Sequence record: MT150133.1
DNA: 64,000 nt
Source: Enterobacteria phage vB_EcoM_IME540
Direction: 5' to 3' (one strand)
Shown: piece by piece, positions 2,547 to 54,126 of the stretch
Numbering within the stretch: position 1 is the first letter of the stretch
How the letters are laid out: the number at the start of each line of letters is the position of its first letter
Notes under the pieces: model-generated
What the model was told of the DNA's origin: nothing
The model's input: only the letters and a program-made list of their open reading frames with translations
The model's database searches: none
Translations under genes and position numbers: made by a program

Positions 2547-3506
2547 TTATTTTTCGAAAGGACGAATTAAATGTTGGTTACGCTTAAACCGTTCAATGTA
2601 GTCGTTTTCACCTAAAGTCTTGTACATATTAACCACAGCTTGGTAGTTTTCCCATGCATAAGTGCGGAACCAACCTGAAGTGATTGAGGTGCACACTTTC
2701 TCAAGGGCCATATAGAAACTTAATGATGGTGAAATATTGAAGTCATTAGGAACCTGTGAACGTTCTAGTGCCAGGACACAAGTTTCTTCATACACACCAG
2801 CCAGTTTAATAGCTTCAGGCAAAGCCTCGAACTTCTCACGAGAGGTCATGACTTCAGAACCTTCCTTCATATAAAAGGTATATGCAGGGCGCCCTGCCAA
2901 TGCCACTGCTTCATGGATAGAGTCGTGGTCCAGAGTATAAATGGGATCATTAAAGAACGATGATTTGTTTACATCCAATTTAGGGTGGGAATAGCTCAAC
3001 GTTTCTTTTTGACGTTGCAACATAATTTCCTGGAGTTCTTCGTTAAGGGTGATACCTTTATTACGAAGGTATTTGATGTGGGACATGGTTTTCAAGAAGA
3101 ACGGATTATTCTTCAAGAAACGATGGGAGGTTTTGATAGCCAGACAGATATCAGGGGTTGCCCAATAGAAACCTGTAAGACGGTCCTTTTTAATATGATT
3201 TTCGGCATATTTCAGGAGACGATAACTTGAGGTGAAATCTTCGTCTTGAAGCTCACCGGTAATTTCTCGTACGTTAGTCAGGGCACGAACGATATAAGCT
3301 TCAAAATAGGTTTCTTTACCATTGTACATGCATTTAAAAGCCTGGACATCAGGGTTATCCACAGGAACATGGGCACCAAACATCCGAGCTTTAAAGTGAT
3401 TCCATGAGCCTTGGTCGGCAATGAAATCCCAATCAGAATTTTCGATATGCTTACTTTCAATCAGACCAGCGTGGTGCAGTGCACGAGAACCAATAACTAA
3501 CATCAT
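2547..3506 (-). CDS. hypothetical protein, 319 aa; possible Pol-beta-type nucleotidyltransferase-like motif
   Basis: Start at ATG 3506-3504 with RBS GAGGAAA; N-terminal IGSRALHHAGLIESKHIENSDWDFIAD loosely resembles the hG[GS]...DxD signature. Confidence 0.6.
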   Translation of the reverse strand: MMLVIGSRALHHAGLIESKHIENSDWDFIADQGSWNHFKARMFGAHVPVDNPDVQAFKCMYNGKETYFEAYIVRALTNVREITGELQDEDFTSSYRLLKYAENHIKKDRLTGFYWATPDICLAIKTSHRFLKNNPFFLKTMSHIKYLRNKGITLNEELQEIMLQRQKETLSYSHPKLDVNKSSFFNDPIYTLDHDSIHEAVALAGRPAYTFYMKEGSEVMTSREKFEALPEAIKLAGVYEETCVLALERSQVPNDFNISPSLSFYMALEKVCTSITSGWFRTYAWENYQAVVNMYKTLGENDYIERFKRNQHLIRPFEK

Positions 3507-7482: not shown

Positions 7483-7746
7483 TTATTTCATATTATTGAA
7501 ATAATTTTCTGCATCAAAATCATTACCATGGTAAACTTTGGTAGACGATTTGGCGTAACCTTCAGCTGAGAACATATTAATCACAACTTTAATTGTATAC
7601 CACTGTCCATCTTCATTACCCATTACTGCATAGGTTTCATACACCGGGTGTTCAGGACCGATAACCTTAATATCGTTAACTGTGGCACCAAATTCTTCCG
7701 GAACGCATTTCATAAAGAAATTAAACACTTCACCATAATTATCCAT
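7483..7746 (-). CDS. hypothetical protein, 87 aa
   Basis: Track ORF begins at a GTG; real start taken as ATG 7746-7744 with RBS AAGGAG. Confidence 0.5.
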   Translation of the reverse strand: MDNYGEVFNFFMKCVPEEFGATVNDIKVIGPEHPVYETYAVMGNEDGQWYTIKVVINMFSAEGYAKSSTKVYHGNDFDAENYFNNMK

Positions 7747-7781
7747 TTTACTCTCCTTCACTCTGTTGTTTTGATAGGTCT

Positions 7782-7810
7782 ATAGTATCATGTTTAAAGG
7801 AGGTGTAAAC
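7782..7810 (-). promoter_or_regulatory. early promoter cassette (-35 GTTTAC, 17 bp, -10 TACTAT)
   Basis: Minus strand GTTTACACCTCCTTTAAACATGATACTATAGACCTATCAAAACAACAGAGTGAAGGAGAGTAAA-ATG. Confidence 0.55.
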
Positions 7811-7833
7811 ATCTTTTTTAAACTTTTAGAAAC

Positions 7834-7861
7834 AAAAAAGGCCCAACCTTTCGGAAGGGCC
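7834..7861 (-). terminator. rho-independent terminator, copy 1 of identical 30-bp element ACAAAAAAGGCCCAACCTTTCGGAAGGGCC
   Basis: Minus strand reads GGCCCTTCCGAAAGGTTGGGCC + TTTTTT directly after the stop of gene 7867-8421. Confidence 0.65.
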
Positions 7862-7866
7862 GTGAA

Positions 7867-8421
7867 TCAGTTCTTGTAGAACCGGAACGGGTTTATGTGG
7901 AAGGCTAACATAGCCTTAGGGATTTTACGAGACAAAAGACTCTTAAGTTTCCAACCACAGTACACGCGAAGGTAAAAGGTAATTCCACCTACTTTAAGAT
8001 ACGGAACCGAAGCAAAGACTCCCCATGCTTCATCATTCCACATCCATAACCAACCATGGTGAGCTTTATCAGGAGAACCAGATTCTACATCAGGATTACC
8101 GCGATAATGGAATTCTGAACTACAATCACGTCCTAGTTTATGATAAGCAAAGTTATAAGCTTTATTTCGCCATAGCCAAGCTACTCTCTGGAGGTAAACA
8201 CCACCAGGCATTTTCCTGATTTTAGCCCAACGTTTAATATGACCTTTGTCGCCATCAATTGGATTATCGTATGTCATCATCCAATCAAAGCCATAAGGCA
8301 ATTTACCGGTCTTTTTATTGTAGAAAGGAACTACAAAAGGCGCAAGGATAACGGCTAGAACCATAGAGATAAAATCCAGCGGGACCAACAGAATCCAACT
8401 CAAATATTTTAAAAGTTTCAT
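7867..8421 (-). CDS. hypothetical membrane-anchored protein, 184 aa, Trp/His-rich C-terminal domain
   Basis: N-terminal hydrophobic segment LSWILLVPLDFISMVLAVILAPFVVPF; RBS AGGAAATAAT; late-type TATAAATA box 27 nt upstream. Confidence 0.6.
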   Translation of the reverse strand: MKLLKYLSWILLVPLDFISMVLAVILAPFVVPFYNKKTGKLPYGFDWMMTYDNPIDGDKGHIKRWAKIRKMPGGVYLQRVAWLWRNKAYNFAYHKLGRDCSSEFHYRGNPDVESGSPDKAHHGWLWMWNDEAWGVFASVPYLKVGGITFYLRVYCGWKLKSLLSRKIPKAMLAFHINPFRFYKN

Positions 8422-8447
8422 ATTATTTCCTAAGTTAGTTTACTACA

Positions 8448-8455
8448 TATTTATA
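8448..8455 (-). promoter_or_regulatory. late promoter TATAAATA for gene 7867-8421
   Basis: Minus strand TTTTTTGTATAAATATGTAGTAAACTAACTTAGGAAATAAT-ATG. Confidence 0.5.
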
Positions 8456-8456
8456 C

Positions 8457-8484
8457 AAAAAAGGCCCAACCTTTCGGAAGGGCC
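8457..8484 (-). terminator. rho-independent terminator, copy 2 of the identical 30-bp element
   Basis: Same hairpin + T-run downstream of the tRNA/ncRNA region. Confidence 0.65.
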
Positions 8485-8490
8485 TTTAAC

Positions 8491-8715
8491 CTAGGGTAAC
8501 CTTGTCGGGGTTCCACCTGCTAGGCAAGTGTTCGGTGCGCCGTTTCAGCTGTGATAGTAAAGAGCCAGAACACAGTAAAACTGTGGGAGGAACTATACTC
8601 CAGGGAACATCAGTCCGACGACTTACCGGTAGCGACCCGGTTTCTTGTTTGGTGCGCCGGTGAATGCTGGTAATCAGTCTTCATACGACGGCTTGACTAT
8701 ATAATAGTCTTCATT
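8491..8715 (-). ncRNA. candidate small stable RNA(s) downstream of tRNA-Arg, analogous in position to T4 RNA species C/D
   Basis: 225 nt with no credible ORF, between tRNA-Arg and a terminator; internal repeats GGTGCGCCG and AGTCTTCAT; not folded. Confidence 0.3.
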
Positions 8716-8790
8716 TGGTATCCCGCCCTGGGATCGAACCAGGACCGCAAACTTAGAAGGATCGTATGCTATCCATTACACCAGCGGGAC
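8716..8790 (-). tRNA. tRNA-Arg (anticodon UCU), CCA encoded
   Basis: Minus strand GTCCCGC...TTCTAAG...CCTGGTTCGATCCCAGGGCGGGATACCA; 7-bp acceptor stem, T-arm CCTGG-TTCGATC-CCAGG, anticodon loop CTTCTAA. Confidence 0.85.
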
Positions 8791-8795
8791 GTAAT

Positions 8796-9461
8796 TCAAA
8801 ATTTTATTTTACGGCCTTTATTCCAACCTTCAGGAATAATATCCGTTTTGTTAATACGTTTAGAAACTTTTTCTTCTAAAGAATGAATCCACATTTTTCC
8901 ATATCCGGAATTATTTTCACCTTGTTGGTGTTTATTTCTGGCGTGAGATTCTTTCATTTTATTTTTGGTTTCATCTGAATGGGTCTTACCCAAGAAAGAT
9001 TTAGTATTTGAAAATTTCTCTCTATACTTAGGATTATCCCAAAGTTGTTTAAACCTTTCCGAACCCATTTTACGATATTTTTCTTTAAGGTCTGGGTCGT
9101 TCTCAAATCTGGTTTTAAAAGCGGCAACTCCTTTTAAGGAAGCTTCTTTCTTTTTATCTAAATATTCTTCAGTGTTTAAATGGTCCCAACCACCTTCACC
9201 ACCTAATTTCAAATTATAAACATCAGGGCGCTTTAAAAACTCTTCAGTCACAATATTCTTTTCTGACTCAAACATAGAGGTTTTATCGTCAAAGAACTCT
9301 AATATTTCTTTAGAGAAATTTTCTATACCGTATTTGACCTGGGCCCTTTTTAAGAGTTTACCAGAACCAAAATATGCATCATTCAAATTTTCGGTTGAAT
9401 GGGCGCCTATATAGATTTTATTATTAATTTTGTTTGTTATTTTATAAGTGTAATGGAACAT
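8796..9461 (-). CDS. segB: GIY-YIG homing endonuclease, segB-like, inside the tRNA cluster
   Basis: 221 aa; N-terminal YKITNKINNKIYIGAHST...GSGK motif; basic NUMOD-like C-terminus; RBS AGGAGA; same position as T4 segB. Confidence 0.8.
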   Translation of the reverse strand: MFHYTYKITNKINNKIYIGAHSTENLNDAYFGSGKLLKRAQVKYGIENFSKEILEFFDDKTSMFESEKNIVTEEFLKRPDVYNLKLGGEGGWDHLNTEEYLDKKKEASLKGVAAFKTRFENDPDLKEKYRKMGSERFKQLWDNPKYREKFSNTKSFLGKTHSDETKNKMKESHARNKHQQGENNSGYGKMWIHSLEEKVSKRINKTDIIPEGWNKGRKIKF

Positions 9462-9502
9462 AAATATCTCCTATTTCTAAGAGTATTTATGTTCTCAAAA
9501 TA

Positions 9503-9573
9503 TGGCCCTGGGTGGAATCGAACCACCATCCAGCGATTATGAGTCGCTCGCTTGACCGTCCAGCTACAGGGCC
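9503..9573 (-). tRNA. tRNA with CAU anticodon (Met, or Ile if lysidine-modified), CCA not encoded
   Basis: Minus strand GGCCCTG...AGCGA-CTCATAA-TCGCT...GGTGG-TTCGATT-CCACC-CAGGGCC-A. Confidence 0.8.
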
Positions 9574-9578
9574 TTAAA

Positions 9579-9851
9579 TCAAACTACAAATCCAGCAGGA
9601 GCATTATCATCTTTAGCCATGTGCTGAATTGTATGATAAGTCATTTCTTCAGGAGCAACCAGATAAGCCGCAGCGTTAACTAGTGGAATTATTTTTGGTT
9701 TAGCGAATGTGCTATCGGCAATTGCCATAAAGGGCTCGCCATCAGTCTCAACTTCGCCAAATTGACATTCATATGAAATAGAACAACGTTTGGTAGTTGT
9801 TGTCTTGGTTTCTGGGTCGTAAAAAGCTAATTTTAATACTAACATAAACAC
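9579..9851 (-). CDS. hypothetical protein, 90 aa
   Basis: ORF only, immediately upstream of the tRNA. Confidence 0.4.
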   Translation of the reverse strand: MFMLVLKLAFYDPETKTTTTKRCSISYECQFGEVETDGEPFMAIADSTFAKPKIIPLVNAAAYLVAPEEMTYHTIQHMAKDDNAPAGFVV

Positions 9852-9903
9852 CTCAAATAAAATTAAGTAAAGTAAGTTTGATTAATAGACCTTGTCTATT
9901 ATG

Positions 9904-9929
9904 AAAGGTTCTTTGAGGGAAGAACCTTT
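9904..9929. other. 10-bp-stem hairpin AAAGGTTCTT-TGAGGG-AAGAACCTTT in an intergenic region
   Basis: Perfect inverted repeat in 170-nt noncoding stretch 9852-10019. Confidence 0.4.
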
Positions 9930-10019
9930 GGTAATAGAGGGTATTAATGATAGAGTAATAATAACACATTACTCTTAAAGCATATTACTATTTTTAGGAA
10001 TAGTCTGGTCAAATTTGAT

Positions 10020-10310
10020 TCATTGTGGCCACATATTAATGTAATCAAGTTTAATAGAAGCAATCTTCAAAGGATTTTTAAAGATGTCGTATTCGATCAA
10101 TCCGTTTTCAGTTGCGGTGTAGAAAGTAAAGTTAACAGAATTATAACGGCGACCATTAACTTTTAGTTTAACGTCGCTTGAACTACGACCAATATTAACC
10201 TGTTGGACATCAAGCACAGCACCTTTGCCAAAGTTGCGAATCAGTAGCTCTGCTGCAACCTGGTCTGAATTATAGCCATTCTCTGGATTAGTAACCTTAA
10301 CGTATAGCAT
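10020..10310 (-). CDS. hypothetical protein, 96 aa
   Basis: ORF with RBS GAGGG; stop/start juxtaposed to the upstream gene. Confidence 0.5.
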   Translation of the reverse strand: MLYVKVTNPENGYNSDQVAAELLIRNFGKGAVLDVQQVNIGRSSSDVKLKVNGRRYNSVNFTFYTATENGLIEYDIFKNPLKIASIKLDYINMWPQ

Positions 10311-10718
10311 TTAACCCTCGTCTACAATAGTATGGGTATTAGCATTAACAATCTGCCACCAGTCACAGTCAAAACGATTAGAACCGTAACGAGGCTTTTT
10401 CTCATTTTCGTTAATAATATCACGTAGTTCGTCTTCAGAAAATGCTTTAGCGATTAAATCGGTATAGCCGCCACGTGGATAATAGTTATCACCTGCGAAC
10501 AGAAGGAAATTTACTTTACCAGAAGGAACATATGCTTCCTTAGGATACTTGTTTCCTGCTTGGTCTACCACTTCAATATAACGGTAAGGAATATCGGTAC
10601 TTTCAACCCATTGCCAAGCTGCAGCAGGGGATTCAAAAGCATCTACACCTAAACGGTTATCTTCATCTTTAGACGGATTATTTTCATAATCCGCATATAC
10701 ATAATATTCAATGTTCAT
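10311..10718 (-). CDS. hypothetical protein, 135 aa
   Basis: ORF with TAATG overlap to the upstream gene. Confidence 0.55.
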   Translation of the reverse strand: MNIEYYVYADYENNPSKDEDNRLGVDAFESPAAAWQWVESTDIPYRYIEVVDQAGNKYPKEAYVPSGKVNFLLFAGDNYYPRGGYTDLIAKAFSEDELRDIINENEKKPRYGSNRFDCDWWQIVNANTHTIVDEG

Positions 10719-54098: not shown

Positions 54099-54126
54099 AA
54101 AAAAGGCCCAACCTTTCGGAAGGGCC
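54099..54126 (-). terminator. rho-independent terminator, copy 3 of the identical 30-bp element
   Basis: Same sequence as at 7834-7861 and 8457-8484; T-run on the minus strand. Confidence 0.6.

Follow-up and report, generated by a model that had tools for sequence, protein, structure and literature searches.

A segB-bearing two-tRNA locus in Enterobacteria phage vB_EcoM_IME540, a probable Dhakavirus form of the T4 tRNA region

Results

A compact minus-strand locus of probable Dhakavirus type

The window analysed here is a 64,000-nt stretch of Enterobacteria phage vB_EcoM_IME540 (record MT150133.1). Its tRNA region reads, on the minus strand, trna.4-trna.3-trna.2, a 90-aa open reading frame (ORF), a tRNA with anticodon CAU, segB, tRNA-Arg(UCU), a short rnaD-like segment that we call the mini unit, rnaD, a trailer and a terminator. 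The features are listed below with the evidence that assigns them.

8458..8490, minus strand: intrinsic terminator, GGCCCUUCC-GAAA-GGUUGGGCC followed by U6 (sequence, folds, T4 alignment)
8491..8533, minus strand: conserved trailer with small hairpins (alignments, fold)
8534..8645, minus strand: rnaD homolog (T4 "species 2" small stable RNA) with a type-A central hairpin (covariance model)
8646..8715, minus strand: mini unit, 66-70 nt (insertion relative to T4)
8716..8790, minus strand: tRNA-Arg(UCU), reading AGA, CCA encoded (ARAGORN; Rfam, 48.8 bits)
8796..9461, minus strand: segB ortholog, a 221-aa free-standing GIY-YIG homing endonuclease (identity to T4 SegB; Pfam; PHROG)
9462..9502, minus strand: segB leader, UAUUUUGAGAACAUAAAUACUCUUAGAAAUAGGAGAUAUUU (comparison of the window and T4 junctions)
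9503..9573, minus strand: tRNA with anticodon CAU, CCA not encoded (ARAGORN, "Met"(cat); Rfam, 62.6 bits)
9579..9851, minus strand: 90-aa ORF, phrog_14864 (PHROG match, E=5e-63)
10020-10310: flanking ORF, trna.2 homolog (49% identity to T4)

The region is flanked by homologs of trna.2, trna.3 and e.8, and is 96.9% identical to that of AnYang, a Dhakavirus. Only 4 of 556 matching records covered at least 80% of a 1.5-kb query, and among these 556 the segB-containing arrangement of the window was shared by AnYang, LQ5 and LHE83 alone. A match in Bp7 was rejected as a tRNA region, since all that matched there was a further copy of the hairpin of the terminator. No perfect late promoter (TATAAATA) was found on the minus strand inside 8491-10020, and promoter-like matches were fewer than expected from shuffled sequences.

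Two tRNAs and the codons that they probably serve

ARAGORN detected two tRNAs in the whole window, both on the minus strand, and Rfam returned the same two and nothing else, either at the gathering score over the 64 kb or at E<=10 over 7700-10400. The original prediction of just two tRNAs is thus borne out, as is the count of eight that it gave for T4, which we found in the homologous T4 stretch. Its further proposal, that the rest of the cluster had been lost or replaced, stood in part. The 90-aa ORF, which the Dhakavirus ecom005 also has and dhabil lacks, does fill the position held in T4 by tRNA-Gln, Leu, Gly, Pro, Ser and Thr, to which it is unrelated. Loss from an eight-tRNA cluster, however, was unsupported, because one to three tRNAs are the usual set among the sampled Dhaka-, Gapriver- and Mosigviruses. 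JS98 has three tRNAs and RB69 two (PMC2993671, Table 2); the JS98-type set is CAU-Asn-Arg, and a small set is normal there.

The tRNA-Arg(UCU) is identical to its T4 counterpart (when aligned with T4T, 100% of the columns agree). The codons AUA and AGA were used 10.3 and 5.6 times per 1000 codons in 70 ORFs of the window, against 1.1 and 0.9 per 1000 in ten E. coli genes, whereas the ATG frequency was the same in the phage and the host sample. AUA and AGA are the codons with the poorest tRNA supply in E. coli.

The CAU tRNA resembles tRNA-Ile2

The CAU tRNA had been described as Met, or Ile if modified. Sequence comparisons favoured the second label over the first: the tRNA shares 72% identity with E. 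coli ileY, as compared to 54.5% with metT/U and 47% with an initiator tRNA sequence. The acceptor stem GGCCCU/AGGGCC (with C4-G69 and C5-G68) and the anticodon arm GCGACUCAUAAUCGC are common to this tRNA and ileY. The E. coli BLAST matches listed were all annotated as tRNA-Ile, the tRNA at the same locus of Mosigvirus F27 is annotated Ile2, and Ile2-aware programs label homologs Ile or Ile2. The slot is moreover that of T4 tRNA-Ile, and both types occurred together in no sampled cluster. Work on E. coli has defined C4-G69, C5-G68, C29-G41, A37, A38 and A73 as determinants for TilS and IleRS. All of these are present in the CAU tRNA (GGCCCUG...AGCGA-CUCAUAA-UCGCU...CAGGGCC-A).

From these features it is most likely a tRNA-Ile2 that would read AUA after lysidine modification. 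The alternative is an elongator tRNA-Met, serving extra methionine decoding or as a decoy rather than as a reader of AUA. G2-C71 and C3-G70 of the CAU tRNA are also compatible with MetRS, and without lysidine the molecule would accept methionine. Annotation also points that way: ARAGORN and most related phage records label it tRNA-Met, and the SegB study, like older annotations, names the T2L allele tRNA-Met (PMC2330249). We nevertheless regard a tRNA-Met as quite improbable in view of the ileY-type acceptor stem and anticodon arm, the markedly lower identity to metT/U and to the initiator, the Ile annotation of the listed E. coli matches, the Ile or Ile2 labels given to homologs by Ile2-aware programs, the allelism with T4 tRNA-Ile, and a codon usage in which AUA is over-used by the phage while ATG is as frequent as in the host sample.

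segB lies where dhabil has a tRNA gene

A GIY-YIG endonuclease gene had been predicted to lie between the two tRNAs exactly as segB does in T4, and the comparison upheld this: the T4 order is tRNA(CAU)-segB-tRNA-Arg, and 167 of the 221 residues (76%) are identical to T4 SegB, without gaps and over the full length (E=2e-124). The N-terminal GIY-YIG domain was recognized by Pfam PF01541 at residues 3-71 (24.3 bits, for a cut-off of 22.6), NUMOD3 scored 19.4 bits, slightly under its cut-off, and the protein belongs to the homing endonucleases of phrog_314 (E=1.8e-47). The leader is identical to that of T4 segB and joins the CAU tRNA directly at its discriminator base.

SegB targets GGTTCRANTCC and prefers the tRNA-Asn gene (PMC2330249), and JS98 and JS10 are reported to have three tRNAs each but to lack genes for homing endonucleases (PMC2993671). 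In dhabil the order is CAU-Asn-Arg without segB, and the SegB motif is present in both the CAU and the Asn genes. In ecom005 and 04086 the order is CAU-Arg, again without segB; the motif is present in the CAU gene of ecom005 and absent in 04086. In the window, the T-arm of the CAU tRNA contains the SegB core motif GGTTCGATTCC. As a comparison of alleles, not as a reconstructed event, segB appears to sit in the slot that tRNA-Asn holds in dhabil; this would account for two tRNAs here as compared to three in dhabil. The CAU tRNA matches that of dhabil, while tRNA-Arg and the mini unit match those of ecom005 and 04086. Therefore, more than one exchange is needed.

The tail holds rnaD and lacks rnaC

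Downstream of tRNA-Arg, the prediction had placed 225 nt of noncoding sequence ending at a terminator. No plausible ORF was found on the minus (coding) strand in 8491-8715, and the GAAA-tetraloop hairpin with its U-run at 8458-8490 is homologous to the T4 terminator that follows rnaC. A simple terminator scan had missed it because its stem contains two U.U mismatches. A 27-nt core of this terminator recurs at 7835-7861 and 54100-54126. The tail had also been assigned to the position of T4 RNAs C and D. It is indeed homologous to the T4 stable-RNA region and contains rnaD, but rnaC is absent and an extra unit of 66-70 nt is present.

A covariance model of rnaD (R1), comprising 15 other phages, none of which has the hairpin type of the window, matched over its full length with 83.3 bits (E=1.4e-19). 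The 45 nt at the 5' end and the 22 nt at the 3' end are the same as in T4 rnaD save for one base. In the 15-sequence alignment 96% of the cells were paired, with compensatory changes at 8 pairs as compared to 2 at most when the partners were slid. The end domains are near-invariant across four genera. The central hairpin exists as three alleles (types A, B and C) that recur in different genera; the type-A hairpin of the window is also found in T2, and AnYang carries type C. Scans of public collections gave 5 loci among viral and 12 among metagenome sequences. No Rfam family matched rnaC or rnaD. K-turn and T-loop readings of the invariant loops were rejected, as the consensus does not fit by eye. 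When the rnaD hairpin, mini unit and P1 region were compared with the rest of the window in search of antisense targets, matches stayed at chance level (blastn-short; best 15 nt, 93%, E=0.55). In many GenBank records, hypothetical proteins are annotated over the stable RNAs of the region.

Evolution of phage BW-1 on the host ECOR34 has been described to give a convergent SNP (PMC12685909). We mapped it to rnaD position 73, where it changes a C.A mismatch of the apical stem to C-G, the state already found in the window.

T4 rnaC (species 1) is a molecule of about 139 nt with a tRNA-like T-arm, located between rnaD and the trailer. Alignment with T4 showed that a 146-nt rnaC cassette is precisely absent from the window: the trailer, homologous to the sequence after T4 rnaC, is joined here straight to the 3' end of rnaD (3 nt, versus 149 nt in T4), and the tail contains neither a T-arm motif nor any alignment to rnaC. 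The cassette was absent from all six Dhakavirus-type loci. The other loci for which the spacing could be measured cleanly, 20 in number, all had it, and their spacing was constant. The rnaD model gave no match to T4 rnaC, which we therefore did not retain as an rnaD paralog.

Could the locus then be what degeneration has left of an eight-tRNA cluster like that of T4, with six tRNAs and both stable RNAs eroded and the tail decaying and non-functional? T4 does have eight tRNAs, rnaC and rnaD at the same place, the slot of its subcluster I is filled here by an unrelated ORF, and rnaC is missing. However, the near-invariance of the rnaD end domains in four genera and the covariation of the stems indicate purifying selection and not decay. 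Not a single tRNA remnant was detected by Rfam in 7700-10400, even at E<=10, and Dhaka-, Gapriver- and Mosigviruses as a rule have clusters of one to three tRNAs. We consider such a decay very unlikely.

A mini unit between tRNA-Arg and rnaD

The strand and order of rnaD match those in T4, with the mini unit of 66-70 nt lying between it and tRNA-Arg; in dhabil, rnaD starts 4 nt after the CCA of tRNA-Arg. The mini unit consists of a 5' hairpin (GACUAU/AUAGUC) and a second hairpin closed by GCCGUCG/CGGCGC, followed by ACCA. Its minimum free energy is -16.4 kcal/mol (z=-3.0), and 3 of 200 shuffled sequences fold at least as stably. The rnaD covariance model spans it end to end (8651-8713) with 15.6 bits (E~0.004 in 3 kb), close to the 13 bits that spurious matches of this model reach, and among 2000 dinucleotide shuffles a single one equalled its alignment with rnaD. 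Like rnaD, it comprises two hairpins; the 5' one differs in sequence yet pairs. It was found in 26 GenBank phage records only, at 97-100% identity; those checked are Dhakaviruses, and ecom005, 04086, QL01, WG01, MX01 and AnYang share it. Its 3' end is GCAACA, not GCACCA, in 24 of the 26.

Two other identities were rejected. A tRNA relic did not fit, as the unit lacks a T-loop and does not visibly resemble the dhabil-type tRNA-Arg that it would replace; nor did a promoter, as reading the sequence revealed no sigma-70, MotA or late-promoter motif with the proper spacing. Judged by layout and alignment, the mini unit is probably an internally deleted duplicate of rnaD. A competing explanation, to which we give somewhat less than even odds, is a recombination scar or spacer without a product, the likeness to rnaD stemming from a partial duplication that is now neutral. 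It would agree with the confinement of the unit to 26 closely related records, its borderline covariance score, a CCA-like end that is unconserved in relatives, and its location in a gap that is a hot-spot for insertions, unrelated ORFs lying between tRNA-Arg and rnaD in T2, RB68, SP18 and Mosigviruses. It accounts less well for 97-100% conservation over these records, for a fold better than that of all but 3 of 200 shuffles, and for the preservation of the rnaD layout with an altered 5' hairpin that still pairs.

Discussion

We conclude, with a probability of roughly 85%, that the segB-bearing two-tRNA locus is the Dhakavirus (JS98-type) form of the T4 tRNA region, organized as a single minus-strand unit. 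Near-identical DNA is already in GenBank (AnYang, LQ5, LHE83) and the locus is a textbook T-even feature; in its rnaD part a few details are previously unreported.

The closest well-known counterpart is T4 subcluster II (tRNA-Ile-segB-tRNA-Arg-rnaD-rnaC-terminator). Order and orientation are alike, the two tRNA-Arg sequences do not differ, the SegB proteins are equally long and 76% identical, the segB leader and junctions agree, and the rnaD end domains, trailer and terminator are homologous. The window differs from T4 in lacking rnaC, in carrying the extra unit before rnaD, in an rnaD central hairpin that is T2-like and of another type than that of T4, in a CAU tRNA that is another allele (58% identity to T4 tRNA-Ile), and in the replacement of subcluster I (Gln, Leu, Gly, Pro, Ser, Thr) by the 90-aa ORF. 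With the Dhakaviruses dhabil, ecom005, 04086 and AnYang it shares the flanking genes and an rnaD joined to the trailer without rnaC. The CAU tRNA of dhabil is identical to that of the window up to the discriminator base, but dhabil has CAU-Asn-Arg without segB where the window has CAU-segB-Arg; AnYang differs in its rnaD hairpin (type C instead of type A). A CAU tRNA-Ile2 is also paired with a tRNA-Arg reading AGA/AGG in the ileZ-argN-argO set of Stx prophages, whose ileZ is 78% identical to the CAU tRNA of the window. These sets lie in another genomic context, with no homing endonuclease or stable RNA, and the relation is functional, not syntenic.

Most likely, the two tRNAs would decode AUA and AGA, which the phage uses far more than its host; host TilS would convert C34 of the CAU tRNA to lysidine and host enzymes would add its CCA. 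segB would act as a mobile homing-endonuclease cassette recognizing the T-psi-C motif of tRNA genes, and its mosaic flanks are in keeping with gene conversion. The tail is presumably co-transcribed and would be processed like a tRNA precursor, the ends and stability of the products being expected from T4. rnaD would emerge from it as a structured RNA, some 112-116 nt long, in which the central hairpin evolves fast and the 5' and 3' domains are invariant; the mini unit may in addition give rise to an RNA of its own, some 66 nt in length. A discrete stable rnaD in infected cells has been shown only for T4 (PMC9697503, PMC3014915).

A more speculative proposal, which we think unlikely but worth stating, is that rnaD is modular. 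An invariant scaffold would bind a conserved partner, and selection on the central hairpin would depend on the host or favour diversity; the hairpin may, for instance, act as a decoy for a host factor or defence, or confer specificity against it. Such modularity fits the exchange of three hairpin alleles across four genera, the convergent adaptive SNP of BW-1 that restores a hairpin base pair, and the extra, hairpin-less mini copy in some Dhakaviruses.

The locus thus offers a natural case of a SegB cassette located where a relative has the gene that SegB prefers as its target, and it places segB in a phage type in which the first members to be sequenced lacked homing endonucleases. Its tRNAs form a minimal phage set that would match the two rarest host codons. 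At the level of the genus, rnaC is dispensable throughout, while the rnaD end domains are near-invariant and the structure covaries. Concrete constructs for the study of these RNAs are suggested by the hairpin alleles, the mini unit and the mapped BW-1 SNP. Should rnaD be modular, phages that naturally lack rnaC and carry the mini unit would provide a route to the 50-year-old question of the function of T4 RNAs C and D.

The tRNA locus

The region 8400-9900 was 96.9% identical to that of Escherichia phage AnYang (genus Dhakavirus), and the phage is, judged by its sequence, a Dhakavirus, one of the JS98-type phages akin to the T-evens. Comparison of the flanking ORFs showed that synteny with T4 is complete around the locus, the equivalent T4 interval being Gln-Leu-Gly-Pro-Ser-Thr-Ile(CAU)-segB-Arg-rnaD-rnaC.

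Features of the locus and its flanks
10311-10718, ORF, trna.3 homolog, 63% to T4
10020-10310, ORF, trna.2 homolog, 49% to T4
9503-9573, minus, tRNA with anticodon CAU (ARAGORN, cat; Rfam 62.6 bits)
8796-9461, minus, segB, 221-aa ORF (Pfam GIY-YIG above cut-off, NUMOD3 just under cut-off)
8716-8790, minus, tRNA-Arg(UCU) (ARAGORN, tct; Rfam 48.8 bits)
8646-8715, minus, mini unit, 66-70 nt not in T4 (alignment)
8534-8645, minus, rnaD homolog (alignment with T4 rnaD)
8491-8533, minus, trailer, homologous to T4 sequence after rnaC
8458-8490, minus, terminator, GAAA-tetraloop hairpin then U6, homologous to T4 sequence after rnaC
7483-7761, ORF, e.8, 80% to T4

Two tRNAs had been predicted, and a scan for additional ones found only these: in the entire 64 kb window ARAGORN detected no other tRNA gene and Rfam at gathering score no other family, while Rfam at E≤10 gave no further tRNA-like match in 7700-10400. 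There is no proof that the cluster was reduced from eight tRNAs, since small clusters are usual outside Tequatrovirus; the Mosigviruses sampled have no tRNAs other than the Ile2 and Arg(UCU) pair. Upstream, trna.2 and a 90-aa ORF are 168 nt apart (9852-10019, minus); this intergenic stretch has a strong hairpin, AAAGGUUCUU-CCCUCA-AAGAACCUUU, as well as a TTGACC...TAATAT pair with non-standard spacing. The tRNA unit may have its promoter at this candidate site, though a promoter scan gave no support for one in this stretch.

Identity of the CAU tRNA

ARAGORN labels any CAU tRNA as Met, and the original prediction had allowed Met or Ile. The window tRNA is 72% identical to E. coli ileY (tRNA-Ile2) versus 54.5% to metT/metU, and 47% identical to an initiator tRNA sequence. 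Its acceptor stem, GGCCCU/AGGGCC, and its entire anticodon arm, GCGACUCAUAAUCGC, are also found in ileY; its CCA is not encoded. A BLAST search of 5,426 E. coli genomes gave only tRNA-Ile-annotated genes among the matches listed, and homologs are called Ile or Ile2 in records annotated by isotype-aware tools. The gene occupies the slot of T4 tRNA-Ile, to which it is 58% identical; in the Dhakavirus relatives ecom005 and 04086 that slot has the T4 allele, and none of the clusters sampled contained both alleles. Given the likeness to ileY, the tRNA-Ile annotations and a shared slot in which the sampled clusters have one allele or the other, we read it as an AUA-decoding tRNA-Ile2, which would depend on host TilS; the Met option is not retained. 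Codon use fits this reading: the 70 window ORFs use AUA and AGA at 10.3 and 5.6 per 1000 codons, compared to 1.1 and 0.9 in ten E. coli genes and about 4 and 2 genome-wide in E. coli. The ileZ/argN/argO genes of Stx phages are a parallel to the Ile2 and Arg(UCU) pair.

Origin of segB

The window protein aligned with T4 SegB without gaps over its full length (76% identity), and the 41-nt segB leader and the junctions with both tRNAs are as in T4, confirming the predicted segB-like endonuclease flanked by tRNAs. As a homing endonuclease SegB has been characterised by experiment: the T-psi-C motif GGTTCRANTCC is part of its recognition site, and in T2L, RB1 and RB3 its preferred site falls within the tRNA-Asn gene (PMC2330249). 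A 2026 study reported that SegB in addition drives amplification of adjacent tRNA genes, allowing escape from tRNA-cleaving defences, and that segB in general keeps company with tRNA genes (PMC13096335). For JS98 and JS10 the published description gives three tRNAs, with homing endonuclease genes absent (PMC2993671). The Dhakavirus dhabil has CAU-Asn-Arg without segB, its Asn gene containing the GGTTCRANTCC motif, and ecom005 and 04086 have CAU-Arg, again without segB. Among 556 matching records the window's arrangement was common only to AnYang, LQ5 and LHE83, whose entries were the four with at least 80% coverage of the 1.5-kb query. The flanks form a mosaic, the CAU tRNA being that of dhabil and tRNA-Arg and the mini unit those of ecom005 and 04086. 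The most economical reading of this comparison of alleles is that segB entered the window's sublineage by homing and now holds the slot of tRNA-Asn. The tRNA-like T-arm of T4 rnaC (3245-3255 of the T4 locus, L001) holds GGTTCGAATCC, which fits the SegB core motif perfectly (PMC2330249), so that rnaC genes may themselves be SegB targets.

rnaD and the absence of rnaC

RNAs C and D accumulate late in T4 infection (PMC9697503), and the 225-nt tail 8491-8715 had been predicted to lie in their position. As predicted, the transcribed strand of this tail is non-coding and ends at a terminator; alignment with T4 splits it into four parts (mini unit, rnaD homolog, trailer and terminator). The first 45 and last 22 nt of T4 and window rnaD are alike bar one base, and the middle differs. 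A covariance model built from 15 sequences of rnaD in other phages, the window's hairpin type not being among them, found 8534-8645 with 83.3 bits (E 1.4e-19 in 3 kb, 3e-18 in the whole window). Alignment of 22 distinct sequences revealed as common elements P1 (5' hairpin), P2 (closing helix, GUCGUCG/CGGCGC), P3 (short helix) and a central hairpin, which is long. In the 15-sequence alignment 96.2% of cells were paired, and eight pairs showed double compensatory changes versus one or two with partners slid; the covariation score was 0.184 versus 0.099 in shuffles, and was reached by none of 500 shuffles. By contrast, rnaC is missing: only 3 nt separate the rnaD 3' end from the trailer, versus 149 nt in T4. 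This clean absence was seen in 6/6 Dhakavirus-type loci, and the 149-nt spacing in all 20 other loci where it was cleanly measurable. The prediction thus held for rnaD but not for rnaC, the mini unit being additional.

The single covarying P3 pair (window about 8540 and 8609; columns 106 and 37 of the rnaD alignment, A3) is U-A or A-U in most phages but U.U in the window, TH44 and comparison locus L023, which suggests that rnaD contains a recombination joint, its 5' half being of GAUG type and its 3' half of CUG type. Three sequence types of the central hairpin were seen, A (T2, TH44, IME341, window), B (T4, RB68, AR1, Mosigviruses, RZ, ecom005) and C (AnYang, dhabil, SP18), while the flanking domains are almost without variation across the comparison loci L001-L037. 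Every type recurs in at least two of the genera Tequatro-, Gapriver-, Dhaka- and Mosigvirus, and AnYang, the nearest relative of the window, differs from it in type. The same rnaD SNP arose in every BW-1 line evolved on host ECOR34 (PMC12685909). This change (L037, OR125554.1 position 164264) maps to rnaD position 73, where A-to-G on the RNA strand converts a C.A mismatch into C-G within the apical stem of a hairpin of type A, a state already present in the window and T2.

Plus-strand short ORFs (53 and 40 aa; 8502-8673, plus) lie antisense to the rnaD region. In many GenBank T-even records, rnaC and rnaD are overlaid by one to three annotated 'hypothetical proteins'; these are probably mis-annotated RNA genes. 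The terminator hairpin has a 27-nt core that is present in three exact copies in the window, all minus (8458-8484, 7835-7861, 54100-54126). Two of them bracket a DUF7338 ORF (7867-8421) with its own late-promoter motif TATAAATA at 8448-8455 (minus), and the whole looks like an inserted cassette. A match in phage Bp7 (94.6% over 37 nt) suggests that a related copy lies there downstream of uvsY.-2.

The mini unit

Folding gave two hairpins for the mini unit (-16.4 kcal/mol, z=-3.0), which follows the element order of rnaD: 5' hairpin, AAGYCGUCG, GACUGA, CGGCGCACC(A/G)AACA. Of 2000 dinucleotide shuffles, one reached its alignment score with rnaD. The rnaD model matched it end-to-end with the central hairpin skipped (15.6 bits, E~0.004 in 3 kb); since unrelated matches elsewhere in other loci reach 10-13 bits, this kinship is suggestive only, and we somewhat favour an internally deleted rnaD duplicate. 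It was found in 26 GenBank records (97-100% identity; those checked are Dhakaviruses), most ending in GCAACA and not GCACCA. The tRNA-Arg/rnaD junction is an insertion hot-spot (L003, L014, L017, L018, L031, L033-L035).

Inserts at the tRNA-Arg/rnaD junction
351-nt ORF: T2, RB68, AR1
240-nt ORF: SP18, RZ
345-nt ORF: Mosigviruses
mini unit: some Dhakaviruses

The locus is thus of a known kind, correctly recognised in the original prediction, whose interpretation is partly supported. What is new here is small, namely the alleles of the rnaD hairpin, the mini unit and the mapping of the BW-1 SNP, which could aid the old question of what RNAs C and D do (PMC3014915).
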